A DNA stretch of 64,000 bases from Candidatus Hadarchaeales archaeon (GTDB taxonomy: Archaea > Hadarchaeota > Hadarchaeia > Hadarchaeales > WYZ-LMO6), in contig JAWCKR010000001.1 of the NCBI GenBank assembly GCA_038851755.1, positions 71,139-135,138 on the forward strand. The letters run 5' to 3'. Of the stretch, positions 8,117 to 54,699 are shown one piece after another; position 1 is the first letter of the stretch; every line of letters begins with the position of its first letter. Position numbers and translations under genes: made by a program. The notes beneath the pieces were generated by a model. That model was not told the origin of the DNA and made no database searches. It saw nothing but the letters and a program-made list of their open reading frames with translations.

Positions 8117-8626
8117 CTATCGGGAGACGGGGGGTCCTCCCTCGAACTCCCTCAGCAGTCTCTCCACTTCGCCCCTCACCTTCTCCACCTCCACCACCAC
8201 CACTCCCTCTCCCGGCTGCCCGTACAGGACCACGGTGCCCGGAGGGGACTTCGCCACGGCCGCGAGCGTGGCCAGGTCCTCCTCCCCCTCCACCACTATC
8301 TTCAGGGGAGGGGGGAGGTCGAAGGTCTCCCACAGCTCCCTGGAGAGGGTGGCCGGTGGATTCACCACCCTCCTCTCGGGAAAATCCAGCTCCTCCACCC
8401 TCCTCCTCTCCTCTCCAGACAGGGGGGAGCGGAGGGTCTTGAAGTCCACCACGCAGACATCGGGCCTCACCCCCTCTCCCAGGAGGGTGGCGGTGACCAT
8501 GTCCCCCACCGTCACTATCCTTCTCGGTCGGAGGGTTCTCACGTGCCTCAGGGCCTCCCCCATGCTTGGGAAGACCCTGCCCAGCGGCCTCTTGAGCCTG
8601 TCCCTGAGGTGCTCCGGAAGCCTCAT
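8117..8626 (-). CDS. GTP-dependent dephospho-CoA kinase (DUF359 family)
   Basis: TVGDMVT, DFKTLR, VNPPATL, VEGEEDLA, VLYGQPGEGVV. Confidence 0.88.
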   Translation of the reverse strand: MRLPEHLRDRLKRPLGRVFPSMGEALRHVRTLRPRRIVTVGDMVTATLLGEGVRPDVCVVDFKTLRSPLSGEERRRVEELDFPERRVVNPPATLSRELWETFDLPPPLKIVVEGEEDLATLAAVAKSPPGTVVLYGQPGEGVVVVEVEKVRGEVERLLREFEGGPPVSR

Positions 8627-9492
8627 CCCAACCTCCCCAGCAGGAAGGCCAGCAGGCCGAAGAGCATCCAGAGGAGGGAGAGGCGCTTGAGCTCCGCTGC
8701 CTTACTGGCCGAGGGCTTCCTCAGGGAGAGGAAACCCGTGGAGAGGAAGCCCGCGTCCGCCAGCACCACGGGAGGAAGGTACCAGGGGGAGACCTCACCC
8801 AGCAGAAGGGGGAGGGGGCTCAGCGCCACGGCCGAGAGGTAGAAGAGGAGGACGAAGGAAGCCGCACCCTTCTGGCCTCTGGAGACCGCGAGCGTCCTGA
8901 TCCCCCTTCTCCTGTCCCCCTCCACATCCGCCATCCCCTTCAAAATCTCTCTCCCCGTGTTGGAAAGGAAAGCCATGAGCAGGAAGAAGGAGAGGGTAAG
9001 GGTGGGTTCTTCGCCCACCACCAGGGGACCGTAGAGGAAAGGTATGGCCACGCAGGTGCTCACCATCAGGTTGCCGGGCAGCCCCGTCCTCTTCCCCCTC
9101 GCGTTGTAGTAGGTGGAAAGAAGGAAGGAGAGAACGGCGACGAGCAGGGGATAGAGGGTCCCCCTCTCCACCCAGCTCCCGGCCGCGGAGAGAAGGCCGA
9201 GCGCCGCCAGCCAGGAAGCGAAGAGGAGGGCCTCTCCCGTCGAAACGAGGCCGCTTGGGATGGGCCGGCCAGGCTGGTTCACCTCGTCCACGAAGCGGTC
9301 GAAGTAATCGTTCACCGTCATGGAGGCCCCTGTGAGGAAGAAAGCCGTGGAGAAACCGAGAAGGCTCGGGAGGAACTCCAGCCTGCCCACGGCCAGGATC
9401 TCCCCCACCAGGACGGCGAGCCCCATCATGAGGCAGTTGGGAAGCCTGAGAAGGGAGAGAAAAGCCCGGAGCCTGCGCAGGGGGGTCTTCAT
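8623..9492 (-). CDS. UbiA-family prenyltransferase, digeranylgeranylglyceryl phosphate synthase
   Basis: NDYFDRFVDEVNQPGRPIPSG, REILKGMADVEGD, multiple TM helices; adjacent to ether-lipid genes. Confidence 0.88.
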   Translation of the reverse strand: MKTPLRRLRAFLSLLRLPNCLMMGLAVLVGEILAVGRLEFLPSLLGFSTAFFLTGASMTVNDYFDRFVDEVNQPGRPIPSGLVSTGEALLFASWLAALGLLSAAGSWVERGTLYPLLVAVLSFLLSTYYNARGKRTGLPGNLMVSTCVAIPFLYGPLVVGEEPTLTLSFFLLMAFLSNTGREILKGMADVEGDRRRGIRTLAVSRGQKGAASFVLLFYLSAVALSPLPLLLGEVSPWYLPPVVLADAGFLSTGFLSLRKPSASKAAELKRLSLLWMLFGLLAFLLGRLG

Positions 9493-50152: not shown

Positions 50153-50229
50153 GGGGCCGTGGGGTAACTTGGCCAGCCTACCAGCTTGGGGTGCTGGCGA
50201 TCTGGGTTCAAATCCCGGCGGCCCCACCA
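50153..50229 (+). tRNA. tRNA-Pro(GGG), no intron, CCA encoded
   Basis: Acceptor stem GGGGCCG/CGGCCCC, anticodon arm CCAGC-TTGGGGT-GCTGG, T-loop GGTTCAAATCC, ends ACCA. Confidence 0.95.
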
Positions 50230-50617: not shown

Positions 50618-51142
50618 CTACCGTTTTTTCCCCTCGGCCTTCCACTGGGTCCTCAGCTCCTCCAAGAGCCCGGGATTTGCCTCCTCAAGGATTTGCTCTA
50701 TCAGGCGCCTGACGGCTTCCCCCCTTATCGGCTCGTGGCAGTGGCCGCAACCAAAACCATACTCCTCCCCGAAGTAGAAGTTCTTGAGCACGGATTCCCC
50801 TTTCTCGGCTTTCCACCTGGCCTTCACCCTCACCAGGAGTTCCGGGTTAGCCACCGCCAAAACCCCATCGATCACATATCTGATGAGGTCCTCAGGTATC
50901 CCCCCTCCGCACGCCGGGCATATGAAGAACCTCTTCCCGGCGTAGAGCTCCTCCAGCCAGGAAAAATCCTCTTCCTCTCCTTTCCTTTGGGCCCTCATCT
51001 CCCTCAGCATCTCTGGGTTGGCATCCAGCAGGATCCGCTCCACCAACCACCTGAGATCCTCCTTCTCCACTTCCTTCCCGCACCTGGGGCAAGGAAAGGT
51101 AAGCTCACCAGACCATATCCTCCGGATCCTCATCCCTTTCAT
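50618..51142 (-). CDS. Hypothetical protein with three tandem CxxC-helix-ANP repeats
   Basis: FPCPRC...DANPEMLREMRAQRKGE / FICPAC...VANPELLVRVKARWKAE / FGCGHC...EANPGLLEELRTQWKAE. Confidence 0.8.
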   Translation of the reverse strand: MKGMRIRRIWSGELTFPCPRCGKEVEKEDLRWLVERILLDANPEMLREMRAQRKGEEEDFSWLEELYAGKRFFICPACGGGIPEDLIRYVIDGVLAVANPELLVRVKARWKAEKGESVLKNFYFGEEYGFGCGHCHEPIRGEAVRRLIEQILEEANPGLLEELRTQWKAEGKKR

Positions 51143-51923
51143 CCTCCTCGAAGCGCAGGTGAAACATCAACGATTCGAGCTCGTGCATCAGCATCCGCAC
51201 GCGCCCCAACTCCCACCAGTTCCTCCTTCTCCTCCTGAGCGTGCTTATGCTCTCAGGCCTATCGCGGATGGCCAGGTACTTGGCCAGCACCAGGTCGTAG
51301 ATGGGGAGTTTTTCACCATCCCTCACCTGCACGCAGAAACGCTCCCTTCCGTCCGGGGAGAGCACCTCACCCCTCTTCGTGAGCAGGTACTCCCTTCCGT
51401 TCGCCGCCTTCACCAGGATCTTCCCCTCCCCCAGGAGCTTTTCCGTCAGTTCCTCCCCCAGCACGCTCCTGAGCGTCCGCAGCGCCCTCTCCTCGGCCTC
51501 CCTCTTGGAGGAGAGGAGCAGCTCGGCCAGCTCCCAGGCCCTCTCGGGGGTGAGCTCCCAGAAACCCTGCACACATACCTTGATCCACTCCTCCAGTTCC
51601 TTCCAGCCCACCTCGAAGTCCCCCAGGAAGAACTTCCCGTCCCTCACCTCCAGGACGCCGAGGGGCAGGGAGCGGTGCTCCTGCTCAAAGAGACCCTCCA
51701 CCCCCTTTTCAAGGTGCCCGGGGGAGGGGTTCCTCCTCAGCCTTTTGCGGAACCCCTCCATGTAGAGTCTGAGCTTCCCCTCCATCCTGGCCTTCCTCAC
51801 TCCCTCCAGGAAGAACCCCAGCCCATCAACCGAGTGACACTCCTGCCCACTATCGAGGAAGTGCCTCCTCTCCCCCGGACCCTGGAGGTGGATCTCCCCG
51901 ATCTCCTCGACCGTCCGCGACAA
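51105..51923 (-). CDS. Hypothetical protein, partner of the ubiquitin-like gene
   Basis: SD-like AGGAGGGAGG before a TTG start; C-terminal AEERALRTL...GREYLL...FCVQV...LPIYDLVLAKYLAI domain. Confidence 0.75.
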   Translation of the reverse strand: MSRTVEEIGEIHLQGPGERRHFLDSGQECHSVDGLGFFLEGVRKARMEGKLRLYMEGFRKRLRRNPSPGHLEKGVEGLFEQEHRSLPLGVLEVRDGKFFLGDFEVGWKELEEWIKVCVQGFWELTPERAWELAELLLSSKREAEERALRTLRSVLGEELTEKLLGEGKILVKAANGREYLLTKRGEVLSPDGRERFCVQVRDGEKLPIYDLVLAKYLAIRDRPESISTLRRRRRNWWELGRVRMLMHELESLMFHLRFEEDERDEDPEDMVW

Positions 51924-51940: not shown

Positions 51941-52186
51941 TCAGCCCCCCGTCACGCGGGGGACCAGCAGGAGTTCCACCTCAACGGCGCCCCTTCCGCT
52001 CTCCTCCTTCACGGCGCTCTCCACGGCTTCGAGGTCTTCCCCCAGCAGTCGCGTTCCCTCCCCGGTCCTGATGGCCACCTGGTATCCCTCCTCCAGCTCG
52101 GGCTGCAAACGGTCCTGGAGTTCCTGCTCGGCGCAGACCAGACAGGTGTCTCCCGAGGCCCCCAATTTCCTGATCACCACCTTCAT
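51941..52186 (-). CDS. Small ubiquitin-like (SAMP/beta-grasp-like) protein with C-terminal Gly-Gly, 81 aa
   Basis: Own ATG preceded by perfect SD GGAGGTGA; MKVVIRKLGASGDT...EVELLLVPRVTGG-stop. Confidence 0.75.
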   Translation of the reverse strand: MKVVIRKLGASGDTCLVCAEQELQDRLQPELEEGYQVAIRTGEGTRLLGEDLEAVESAVKEESGRGAVEVELLLVPRVTGG

Positions 52187-52269
52187 CCTTTCCTCACCTC
52201 CTTTTTTGTTAGAAGGAACCTCGGCTCCGGTATTAAGCGATGGAAAAAGAGAGTTATCCCTGTAAAAAA

Positions 52270-52600
52270 AGTTCACCTCCCGGTCCGAGCGCCCCCGGTT
52301 GAACCTCAGGGACCTGGAGAACTCGCGGAACTCTCTGGTCTGGTGATAGATCTCCTCCCCCTTTGCGGTGACCTGGTACCTGCGCGGATAACCCGGGACG
52401 ACCTCCACCCACCCCCTCTCGACCATGAGTTCCAGGATCTGGCGCATCCTGTCCCTGCGCTGGCGGCTCTTCACCCCGTGGTTCATCAGCTGGTAGAGGG
52501 TGAAGGGGCCCTTCTCCTTCATGAGGATCATGTACTCCAGAACCTCCAGGGCGATGCACTCGGCCGGAAGGTACTTGACTCTCTTCTTTCCTCCTTCCAT
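52270..52600 (-). CDS. Winged helix-turn-helix protein (frame continues into the ubiquitin-like gene; 3' end approximate)
   Basis: RMRQILELMVERGWVE...RRYQVTAKGEE is a typical wHTH wing motif. Confidence 0.7.
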
Positions 52601-52706
52601 GGGGTCCCCGTCCTACCCTTGGTGTCCCCATCTTAAATACGTTTCGGTAATCCCTAATCGTAAGGAATTCCCTAAACTTTTTAAGGCGGAAAATGGAAGA
52701 TGGAAA

Positions 52707-53300
52707 GTGCCGGAGATAGGTCCCTTCGCCAGCGTGGGGGTCTCGAACGTCTTCTTCAGGATGGTGCTTGGGGAGACCACGCCCAAGGCGATAGCGGAGG
52801 CCCTGGGGACCAAGCCGTCGACCGTGGTGGAGCACCTGCGCAGGCTCCAGGAGATGGGGGTGGTGAGGCTGGGGGAGAAGGAGGGGAAGTACCAGCACTA
52901 CGAGATCGACTGGGGGAGGTTCGCCAGGGCCTTCCTGAGGCACTCCTACACCCTTTCCCTGCTGCAGGAGGGGGGGAGGACCGAGGAGCTGGAGGAGATG
53001 AAAGGGGTGGCCGAGGAGCTGGGCAGGATGGAGGAGTTCAGGGAGCTCCTGCGCCTTTACTTCCGGGAGCTGGTGGGGAACATGGAAGGGGGGAGGTACC
53101 CCAGGCGCACCATCTGGGGGGCCATCTACGGGTTCGAGGACTCCCTGGAGATCCTCCCCTCTCTGAAGGGAAGACTGGGCGAGAGAGGGGGGAAGCTGGC
53201 GGCCCTGCTGGAGAGGTGGGAAAGGTGCGCCAGGGAGTTCAGGTCGAAGGGGCCTGCCTGTGCCCTGGAAAGGGCGATGCTCGGGCTTGAGAAGCCCTGA
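52707..53300 (+). CDS. ArsR-like winged-HTH transcriptional regulator
   Basis: TPKAIAEALGTKPSTVVEHLRRLQEMGVV...KEGKYQHYEID; GTG start inferred. Confidence 0.8.
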   Translation: MPEIGPFASVGVSNVFFRMVLGETTPKAIAEALGTKPSTVVEHLRRLQEMGVVRLGEKEGKYQHYEIDWGRFARAFLRHSYTLSLLQEGGRTEELEEMKGVAEELGRMEEFRELLRLYFRELVGNMEGGRYPRRTIWGAIYGFEDSLEILPSLKGRLGERGGKLAALLERWERCAREFRSKGPACALERAMLGLEKP

Positions 53301-54699
53301 GGGCGGGAAGACCGGGGGCTGGGGTCACCCACATCCTCCTTCCGCCCAGCAGCTCCTCCACCTCGTCCCCCAGGAGATACTCCCTCTCCCACAGGGCCTT
53401 CGCCACCTCCTCCAGCTTCCCCCTGCCCAGCCCCTCCAGGATCTCCCTAGTCTTGGCCAGGCAGGCCTCCCTGAGTTCCTTCGCTCGGGCGTAGATCTCC
53501 TCCCTCTCCGCCTCTGGGGTGGGCTTGAGGGCACCGAACGTGCCGCTCAGCTCCTCCAGCAAGGGAGTATCGTAGTTGGTGCACGCCCCCCGCTCCATGA
53601 AGTACTCGAGCGAGATCTCTGTGGCCTCGGCCGTGTCCTTGGGCTCGTCGAGGGTGGGGCTTCCCAGCACCATCTCCTCCGCCGCCTTCCCCGCCAGGAG
53701 GGTGCAGATCCTCTTCTCGTACACTTCCAGGCTGTGGGGGCCGGGACCCCAGCAGGGCAGGGTGCACCCCTTCCTGTAGTTCCTGGCAGGCACCACCACC
53801 AGCCTCAGGCCCACGCCCAGCCCCCGGGCCACGGCCGCGTGACCGGCCTCGTGGACGCAGGTGGCCCACCTCTCCCCCTCGCTCTTCCAGCTGCCCTCGG
53901 GTGCGCCCATGAGCTCCCTGACGAGGGCCGAGACCAGGTGCCTGGTCTCCACCTCCTTGCTCCCCGCCAGGGTGGCCTGCAGATGGGCCTCCTCCACCAT
54001 CTCCTCTATGGCCGAGGGCCTGAGCTCGGGGAGGGCGCCCGCCAGCCTCTCCACCTCCACCCCCGCGGTGGGCTTTTTGGAGAGGTAGTACTCGAAGATC
54101 TCCCTCCTCCCCGCCTCGTCCAGGGTGAACTCCACGATTCTGGAGAGCCTCCCCGCCCTGGTGAGGGCCTCGGGCAGGAGGGAAAGGGAGTTGGTGCAGG
54201 CGACCACGAAAACACCCTGCGGTCTCCCCCTGATCCCGTCCAGCTCGGAGAGGAAGGCCGTGTAGGCGGGGGAAGCCACGAACACGTTCTTCTCCTCCTT
54301 CTCCCTGTTCAGGAGGGAGAGGAGCTCCTCGAAGTGCAGGAGGACCACCTCCCCCTTCTTCTCGTAGTGATCCCTGGCGAGGGAGAAGAGCGAAACGACG
54401 TCCTCCGTGGTCCACCCGTCCCCCTCCCTGGGGAAGCGTGTCCCGTCCACCAGCCTCGCCCCGCTTTCGGTGGCCAGGATCCTGGCCGAGAGGGTCTTTC
54501 CCATCCCGGGCGGGCCGCTGAAGATCACGCCGCCGGGAAGCCTGTACCCTCCCTCCCAGAGCTCCCTGTACCTGCGGAGGAGGGAGATGAGCTCCGAAAG
54601 CTCCTTGGAGACGTGGGGCATGCCCCTGAGCTGCTCCAGGCGGGCGGGCTTGAAGTCCCCCTCCTCGAAGTACCTCCTCCTGCTCTCCTCCAGGGTCAT
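53239..54699 (-). CDS. Soluble FtsH-like AAA+ ATPase with M41 Zn-peptidase domain
   Basis: Walker A GPPGMGKT, variant Walker B LLHFEE, LSELDG, ACTN, ALTRAGRL, HEAGH, LLAGKAAEEM, downstream Asp ligand; no TM segment. Confidence 0.85.
   Translation of the reverse strand: MTLEESRRRYFEEGDFKPARLEQLRGMPHVSKELSELISLLRRYRELWEGGYRLPGGVIFSGPPGMGKTLSARILATESGARLVDGTRFPREGDGWTTEDVVSLFSLARDHYEKKGEVVLLHFEELLSLLNREKEEKNVFVASPAYTAFLSELDGIRGRPQGVFVVACTNSLSLLPEALTRAGRLSRIVEFTLDEAGRREIFEYYLSKKPTAGVEVERLAGALPELRPSAIEEMVEEAHLQATLAGSKEVETRHLVSALVRELMGAPEGSWKSEGERWATCVHEAGHAAVARGLGVGLRLVVVPARNYRKGCTLPCWGPGPHSLEVYEKRICTLLAGKAAEEMVLGSPTLDEPKDTAEATEISLEYFMERGACTNYDTPLLEELSGTFGALKPTPEAEREEIYARAKELREACLAKTREILEGLGRGKLEEVAKALWEREYLLGDEVEELLGGRRMWVTPAPGLPALRASQARASPFPGHRQAPST

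Follow-up and report, generated by a model that had tools for sequence, protein, structure and literature searches.

We analyzed a 64,000-nucleotide (nt) stretch of the genome of an uncultured hot-spring archaeon, Candidatus Hadarchaeales archaeon (assembly GCA_038851755.1, here labelled G000; contig JAWCKR010000001.1, positions 71,139-135,138 of the forward strand), hereafter termed the window, and found that positions 51941-52186 of its minus strand constitute a real gene of its own, which encodes an 81-amino acid (aa) β-grasp, ubiquitin-like protein (Ubl) with a flexible tail ending in PRVTGG. Besides the existence of this gene, three further statements are strongly supported: the Ubl belongs to an uncatalogued family that has so far been found in a few Hadarchaeota and on unbinned metagenome contigs; the Ubl and the protein of ~270 aa encoded downstream of it work as a pair; and this pair is part of a patchily distributed accessory cassette, which usually carries a winged helix-turn-helix (wHTH) regulator and often a metalloprotease combining an AAA and an M41 domain (AAA-M41). 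Taken jointly, we regard these statements as very probably correct. The overall interpretation that we favor, namely a new accessory module made of a Ubl and its partner with a presumed role in protein tagging, has somewhat less than an even chance of being right. The features on which the argument depends are as follows.

51941..52186, minus strand: 81-aa β-grasp (ubiquitin-like) gene with a PRVTGG-stop end (open reading frame, stand-alone orthologues, dN/dS, structure prediction by AF2)
52194..52201, minus strand: Shine-Dalgarno-like GGAGGTGA, 7 nt ahead of the ATG (sequence)
52231..52243, minus strand: TATA-like block CGCTTAATACCGG, ~44 nt before the ATG (conserved, within a dip of GC content)
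52264..52270, minus strand: T7 run, site of 2-nt length differences that shift the upstream frame (alignment of genomes)
52187..52600, minus strand: winged-helix regulator, conserved over about residues 1-113, the rest being a non-conserved run-on (homologues)
51105..51923, minus strand: 272-aa partner of no known family (adjacency, fusion, complex prediction)

The small open reading frame (ORF) starts on the minus strand with the ATG at 52186-52184 and continues through 80 further sense codons to the TGA at 51943-51941. No in-frame stop separates it from the winged-helix ATG at 52600, and for this reason ORF callers report a single product of 219 aa, as the preliminary description of this DNA had remarked when it proposed a hidden, separate gene. 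The proposal is borne out by the comparison with congeneric Hadarchaeales genomes (G002, G003, and G004). The genome search matched the wHTH and small-ORF portions as separate pieces in G002 and G003, and only the latter in G004; the corresponding stand-alone ORFs are 81, 81, and 80 aa long, respectively, and end in PRV[TQ]GG. Stand-alone orthologues were also identified on metagenome contigs, and the peptide is not confined to the tail of the wHTH protein. The ratio of nonsynonymous to synonymous substitution rates (dN/dS) of the small ORF is 0.15-0.28 in all six pairs formed by the four sequences compared, with a predominance of changes at third codon positions. The wHTH homologues of other lineages stop near the residues NFF, at about residue 113 of 219 and well short of the small ORF, thus the residues past ~113 represent a run-on over an apparent internal promoter.

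The signals in front of the small ORF were evaluated separately. The GGAGGTGA element, previously described as a perfect Shine-Dalgarno (SD) sequence, is present, and its AGGAGG core and the ATG are both kept in G002 and G003 in the DNA alignment of the junction between the two genes; however, the same octamer is over-represented in the window (29 copies versus 6.7 expected) and only 5 of the 29 copies are followed by an ORF of at least 60 aa, so that the octamer taken by itself is weak evidence. The conservation of the SD-like element together with the ATG in the congeners carries more weight. The 3' end of the 16S rRNA was searched for in this metagenome-assembled genome and was not found. 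The AT-rich stretch that had been reported ahead of the SD-like element corresponds to an A-run, which is kept among the genomes aligned at the junction, and to a drop of GC content to 0.43 at positions 52200-52289, as compared with 0.60-0.70 on either flank, which resembles the dip of the true intergenic spacer at 52620-52709. The CGCTTAATACCGG block within this dip is kept in three genomes despite a differing reading frame over the block, and we consider it a putative internal archaeal promoter. A sigma-70 promoter scan, whose bacterial model is ill-suited to archaea, gave no hit, and a bacterial-type terminator scan, likewise ill-suited to archaea, gave one terminator-like site, which equals the chance expectation. 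The junction alignment contains two 2-nt length differences, one in the T-run (52270-52264) and another just before the ATG of the small ORF, so that the upstream gene terminates in a different frame in each of the three genomes.

Both its fold and its tail mark the protein as ubiquitin-like, as had been suggested from its sequence. The AlphaFold2 (AF2) model of the Ubl, built from seven sequences, has a mean predicted local distance difference test score (pLDDT) of 89.1 and a predicted template modeling score (pTM) of 0.76. It comprises strands at residues 2-7, 14-19, 35-41, 44-49, and 69-76 and helices at residues 20-32 and 52-64, that is, the β-grasp order β-β-α-β-β-α-β, followed by a floppy five-residue tail of low confidence. 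The proposed check of this model by Foldseek yielded no match at E 1e-3, and its top rows are all β-grasp proteins (PB1, RA, MoaD, and ubiquitin). VIA, a structural scan that is independent of Foldseek, placed the PB1 domain 4mjs_A first (Z 8.8, root mean square deviation 2.8 over 77 residues, 8% identity). β-grasp proteins make up most of the VIA list, and its further matches include DIX, SUMO, ISG15, the bacterial Ubl 8tyz_B (Z 5.1), and MoaD 5mpo_B (Z 5.0), with SUMO, ISG15, and the latter two structures all falling at Z 5.0-5.5; rows of the RuBisCO small subunit, aligned over residues 12-80, are also present in the VIA list at Z 4.8-5.6.

Close homologues of the Ubl are rare: three were found in a set of 5.8 billion proteins, one of which carries no name beyond 'hypothetical protein [Candidatus Hadarchaeales archaeon]'. 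When 1.84 billion representatives were searched with a profile, 22 clusters were retrieved at E ≤ 1e-3, 20 of which belong to the family; the other two, giant repetitive proteins with many short matches, were set aside. The 20 family clusters comprise 13 full-length stand-alone proteins of 80-89 aa, four fragments or frame-broken sequences, and three fusions. The exact GG end is conserved in 11 of the 13 full-length stand-alone representatives, the exceptions being P0028 (GG followed by five residues) and P0029 (AG), and all 12 stand-alone Ubl ORFs of the analyzed loci have a stop directly after GG. The conserved columns are concentrated in an RK-x-G-x-x-GD[T/E] loop after strand 1 and in the P-[RP]-V-x-GG end. 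The family with a 'GDT...P..GG' pattern that the preliminary description proposed is real, in the form of a conserved GD[T/E] loop and a P-x-V-x-GG end. No curated model of it was found, the Pfam, NCBIfam, and PADLOC collections having no family for the Ubl, and no viral member was found in scans of viral_contigs and phage records made with the partner. The likeness to SAMP and MoaD drawn there holds for the terminal GG and the flexible tail; however, the protein lies outside the ThiS/MoaD family PF02597, which gave no match for the window Ubl and matched one of 16 family members at E 0.16, and the PF02597 scan of the genome returned five other genes over the cut-off, the small ORF not being among them.

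The 272-aa partner is likewise absent as a family from Pfam, NCBIfam, and PADLOC. Its relatives were identified at three loci in species genomes, all from Hadarchaeota, and on 13 metagenome contigs. A Ubl ORF immediately precedes the partner gene, in the same orientation, in 13 of the 16 loci; of the remainder, one is a contig whose start falls within the partner gene and two are short fragment matches. Moreover, four natural fusions (P0016, P0018, P0019, and L027) combine a Ubl in front with a partner domain behind, and all of them retain the GG, with Q-[PL]-[SP]-P behind it. These fusions provide independent support for a functional link between the two proteins. Zinc ribbons are attached behind the partner domain in three of them (P0016, P0019, and L027). 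Partner proteins that themselves end in Gly-Gly were noted in the second copy of L016 (4967-5827) and in fusions P0018 and P0019, and two tandem partner paralogues are present in both L016 and L026.

Across the 16 partner sequences, the invariant positions include Cys117, Cys197-Val-x-Val, Leu-Pro-x-x-Asp, and LA-x-YL-x-x-RD-x-P-x-x-I-x-TL, the last two falling in a conserved block LPxYDxxLAxYLxxRDxPxxIxTL. In the AF2 model of the partner (pLDDT 78.5), an N-terminal α/β domain is followed by a long helix, after which come a small C-terminal α+β domain and a terminal helix. Foldseek against the PDB gave nothing for it at E 1e-3 or better, and a search of the ESM Atlas yielded no match scoring at least 0.9. 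The only high-probability Foldseek matches of the partner are two unnamed viral proteins of BFVD with neighbouring accession numbers, A0A1P8DIP4 and A0A1P8DIR1, one matched at E 7.5e-3 (99 columns) and the second at probability 0.97 (86 columns); by sequence, no relatives of the partner were found in viral_contigs or among phage records. The OB domain of proteasomal ATPases (PF16450) was considered for the partner and rejected. Two of the 16 members scored 16-18 bits over short matches, short of the cut-off of 23, and an Rpt4 fragment appeared at E 0.43; profile-profile comparison gave no support, as hhalign of the partner with 10 Hadarchaeales PAN N-termini returned a probability of 3.2% (P 0.014; reversed control, P 0.073).

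The Ubl and the partner are also predicted to form a complex. Using our own alignments of 11 rows for the Ubl and 16 rows for the partner, the prediction attained an ipSAE of 0.70 (0.68-0.72 between runs), as compared with 0.01 for the best of three controls; on calibration, the mark applied to this score was attained by 58 of 80 solved complexes and by 2 of 110 mismatched pairs. The runs have at least 95% of contacts in common, and the partner is modelled in them with a pLDDT of at least 85. On the Ubl side the interface is formed by residues 6, 8-13, 34-49, and 73-81, and on the partner side by residues 139-154, 196-203, 205-207, 210, 213-222, and 225-229, with Cys197 included; these interface residues coincide with the invariant columns of both families. 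In the predicted complex, the Ubl would dock on the C-terminal domain of the partner via its GD[T/E] loop, the face of strands β3 and β4, and the C-terminal tail, with the tail placed against the strand of the invariant Cys197 and the invariant helix behind it. The prediction thus backs binding of the two proteins without proving it.

The genomic context of the pair was reconstructed from 19 neighbourhood sources, namely the window and 18 loci, which were searched by phmmer with the window proteins as queries; among the loci, L004 and L014 are one place in G003, and L008 and L015 are one place in G004. In the window, four further features belong to this context.

50153..50229, plus strand: tRNA-Pro(GGG) bordering the cassette
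50618..51142, minus strand: 174-aa protein with three CxxC-plus-helix repeats, overlapping the end of the partner (sequence; weak zinc-ribbon matches)
52707..53300, plus strand: ArsR-type wHTH, ~197 aa, GTG start, divergent (family matches)
53239..54699, minus strand: soluble FtsH-like AAA + M41 metalloprotease (PF00004 6.5e-16, PF01434 2.8e-9)

The distribution of the Ubl is patchy. Its profile matches 5 of the 65 genomes of the order. Within the genus it matches three of the four other genomes, and within the largest family 1 of 46, whereas the single genome of the sister genus gives no match. In G001, the congener without the Ubl, a different gene lies beside the tRNA-Pro; no direct repeat derived from the tRNA-Pro was found flanking the cassette. 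The winged-helix regulator, which recurs ahead of the Ubl and has weak HTH_45, TrmB, and HVO_A0261_N matches, is clearly present in eight sources (two of which, L004 and L014, coincide), and four sources have a weak match on the opposite strand; the ArsR-type wHTH occurs in 10 sources, that is, the window and nine further loci. The 174-aa protein holds the place that is taken by zinc ribbons in the fusions, and it was found only in the window, G002, and L017. Each of its repeats consists of a CxxC knuckle and a helical 'ANPxxL' segment, and a sub-threshold match to a ubiquitin-binding zinc finger (E 1.7e-4) is among its weak zinc-ribbon matches.

The AAA-M41 protein is encoded in 9 of the 19 sources (the window, G002, G004, L018-L021, L022, and L024), which span three divergent groups. 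Its HEAGH motif is intact, so that it combines the AAA domain with the M41 HEXXH motif by which FtsH is recognized; with 133 bits against a TIGR01241 cut-off of 600, it scores far below the FtsH equivalog. As read from the translation, about 57 hydrophilic residues precede Walker A, with no membrane anchor. Soluble FtsH-type proteases are a protein type unusual in archaea, and M41 matches were found in none of four archaeal control genomes. A second AAA-M41 protein of 438 aa, directly followed by a 108-aa wHTH paralogue, is encoded on contig 2 of G000; this second pair (L059, 4884-6523, plus strand) lies in a low-GC stretch with a tRNA-like sequence near. Since it occurs without the Ubl and the partner, the protease and the wHTH regulator constitute one pair in their own right and the Ubl and its partner another, and the two pairs are often joined.

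On several contigs the module is accompanied by genes of mobile elements and defence systems. In L022 and L024 the genes are arranged on one strand in the order wHTH, AAA-M41, Ubl, and partner, and the module is adjoined by an integrase in L022 and by ParB in L024. CRISPR arrays end a few hundred bases ahead of the Ubl in L018 (14 repeats, 169-1158), L020 (8 repeats, 10-571), and L021 (12 repeats, 8402-9256), with repeats of ~37 nt at a spacing of ~73 nt, and L021 also carries type III cas genes (Cas10 and RAMP). A nuclease-like β-CASP/RMMBL metallo-β-lactamase is encoded a few kb off in L018 (7012-8529), L021 (12965-14923), L022 (10165-10629), and L024 (5598-6944), in the latter two beside UDG-like and NucS-like genes. 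With regard to proteasome components, the PF16450 domain of PAN was found in none of the six genomes of family f1 (G000-G005, 88-95% complete), and in 8/8 and 6/7 genomes of two sister families; G000 encodes three 20S proteasome subunit genes.

In the reading that we prefer, the Ubl is used covalently, a possible mechanism that we put forward tentatively. The free Gly-Gly carboxylate of the Ubl would be activated by the single ThiF/UbaA-type E1 of the host, encoded elsewhere; the activated Ubl might then be passed to, or held by, the partner acting as an E2-like carrier, and a target, possibly the wHTH regulator or the proteins of an invader, would be marked. The soluble AAA-M41 protease would unfold and cut the marked protein, which would give mobile or defence islands a tag-and-degrade switch. 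It is the gene neighbourhood that suggests a functional link between the tag and the protease. The stronger version, a self-contained archaeal tag-and-degrade device on such islands, in which the GG of the Ubl is loaded onto the invariant cysteine of the partner and the target is destroyed, we consider unlikely; if true, it would be an instance of ubiquitin-proteasome-like logic assembled from unrelated parts beside CRISPR-Cas, with targets such as its own winged-helix repressor or viral proteins.

Several observations weigh against the tagging interpretation. The complex score expresses the model's confidence, obtained from our own alignments. The E2-like fold of the partner C-terminal domain is a lead taken from VIA, where E2, UEV, RWD, or FANCL proteins, judged by title, make up about 20 of the 50 rows returned for residues 139-234, with Cap2 7to3 and Bub 9eav among the weak matches, at Z 2.8-4.3, the best of which is within the tool's own noise level; this likeness found no support in Foldseek, the PDB profile search, Pfam, or the Atlas. 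Cys197 is placed within a strand, and neither an invariant His nor an HPN-like motif is present in the 16 partner sequences. The GG is internal in all four fusions, and the closest structural match of the Ubl, PB1, is an interaction domain that is not conjugated. No E1, E2, or JAB domain was detected by Pfam in 66 neighbour ORFs from nine loci or in the six genes of the window; one ThiF (E1-type; contig 16) and one Prok-JAB gene over the cut-off are encoded on other contigs of the genome. Finally, the protease is missing from G003 (in 17 kb of context) and from several contigs, and the second AAA-M41 and wHTH pair of the genome, which has neither the Ubl nor the partner, shows that the protease does not need them.

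The likeliest alternative is a non-covalent subunit, which we judge doubtful and somewhat less likely than conjugation. Here the Ubl would never be conjugated and would bind the C-terminal domain of the partner in the manner of PB1, DIX, or UBL modules, regulating or assembling the partner, perhaps as an adaptor for AAA-M41, with the GG conserved as a binding interface. This explanation agrees with the ranking of PB1 and then DIX among the structural matches, with the location of the tail itself within the predicted interface, with the internal GG of the fusions, and with the lack of E1, E2, and JAB genes among the scanned neighbours of any locus. On the other hand, a stop directly after a conserved GG is a hallmark of C-terminal carboxylate chemistry, and it is retained in the stand-alone forms (11 of 13 and 12 of 12, as given above) down to an identity of 25-39%; in addition, the last residue of the Ubl is modelled as floppy, and an invariant cysteine is located in the strand on which the tail is predicted to dock.

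A further alternative concerns the gene itself: in this strain the 81 residues might occur predominantly, or exclusively, as the last domain of the 219-aa winged-helix protein. In its favor, no stop separates the two parts, and the 219-aa form has been deposited as one cluster of four sequences from two contigs. The contigs of a 98%-identical strain (two sequencing runs, X1 and X2) contain no indel across 52187-52313, therefore the in-frame merge is probably real in this lineage rather than an assembly slip; the upstream wHTH gene in this strain has lost its stop, and a wHTH-Ubl product of 219 aa may arise by read-through in addition. We nevertheless regard a domain without a gene of its own as quite improbable, given that the linker DNA is conserved though read in three frames in three genomes, that conservation extends to the ATG and the SD-like element, that the wHTH homologues elsewhere stop before the small ORF, and that a search, albeit a weak one, turned up no wHTH-Ubl fusion beyond this strain's own. 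In the same X1 and X2 contigs, word depth rises 5- to 10-fold over 51955-52342 and the assemblies break there; the runs are labelled RNA and are probably DNA, and the rise may reflect expression, a strain mixture, or a shared conserved segment, between which the contigs do not decide.

The least probable alternative, a ThiS/MoaD-like sulfur carrier whose thiocarboxylate would hand sulfur to the partner as a new synthase in the way MoaE receives it from MoaD, can draw on the terminal GG, the one E1-like ThiF in the genome, the predicted docking of the tail on the partner, the MoaD structures among the fold matches (5mpo and 3rpf), and the resemblance of the internal-GG fusions to MoaD-MoaE fusions, but it is hard to reconcile with the absence of a PF02597 match for the window Ubl (and the single E 0.16 match among 16 members), with the five ThiS-family genes already present elsewhere in the genome, with neighbourhoods in which the scan found no sulfur, thiamine, molybdopterin, or tRNA-thiolation gene and which consist instead of regulators, proteases, nucleases, CRISPR, integrase, and ParB, and with the patchy spread over 5 of 65 genomes.

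Small β-grasp proteins ending in Gly-Gly are the root of ubiquitin signalling, and each prokaryotic variant (SAMP, Bil/Bub, and CBASS Cap2) has revealed another use of GG chemistry. The present family has no curated model and is concealed inside a longer ORF in the annotation of this genome. If its tail is used covalently, the module would represent an accessory system for protein tagging in archaea that makes use of the E1 of its host; if not, it would be a clean case of the ubiquitin fold in which a conserved GG serves purely for binding. A full-text search of the literature found no description of such a Ubl-partner module. It was compared with the systems that it most resembles.

Similar to SAMPs, ThiS, and MoaD (PF02597), the Ubl is a small archaeal β-grasp protein with a flexible Gly-Gly end, and the E1 (UbaA/ThiF) and JAB proteins are encoded elsewhere; in contrast to them, it fails the PF02597 model, depends on an obligate partner that belongs to no known family, and shows a patchy, island-like spread. 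The PB1 domain 4mjs_A is the closest solved fold to the Ubl; however, PB1 domains are internal, are not conjugated, and have no terminal GG, whereas the Ubl carries one and shares 8% identity with 4mjs_A. As in the MoaD-MoaE complexes (5mpo and 3rpf), the GG tail of the Ubl is predicted to dock on a larger subunit and fusions of the two proteins exist, whereas the partner showed no likeness to MoaE in any search and molybdopterin genes are absent from the context. The bacterial antiviral Bil and Bub operons are reported to encode an E1, an E2, and a deconjugating peptidase together (PMC10557695; PMC11601596). The module shares with them a Ubl with a putatively reactive C-terminus in a defence-island setting and a partner that is possibly UBC-like, to judge from the weak Cap2 7to3 and Bub 9eav matches; unlike the loci of the Bil, Bub, and Caldiarchaeum type, its loci have no E1, E2, or peptidase, and encode a wHTH regulator and AAA-M41 instead. 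Finally, the linkage of a Ubl gene to a classical-clade AAA+ protein in a conflict-type neighbourhood is reminiscent of the ubiquitin-26S, Pup-Mpa, SAMP/Urm1-proteasome, and FtsH ternary systems. The FtsH ternary conflict systems with Ubl ligases are bacterial and MoxR-vWA based (PMC7159879). The module differs from these and other tag-AAA systems in that, with no MoxR, vWA, or membrane anchor, its AAA protein carries an M41 protease domain of its own.

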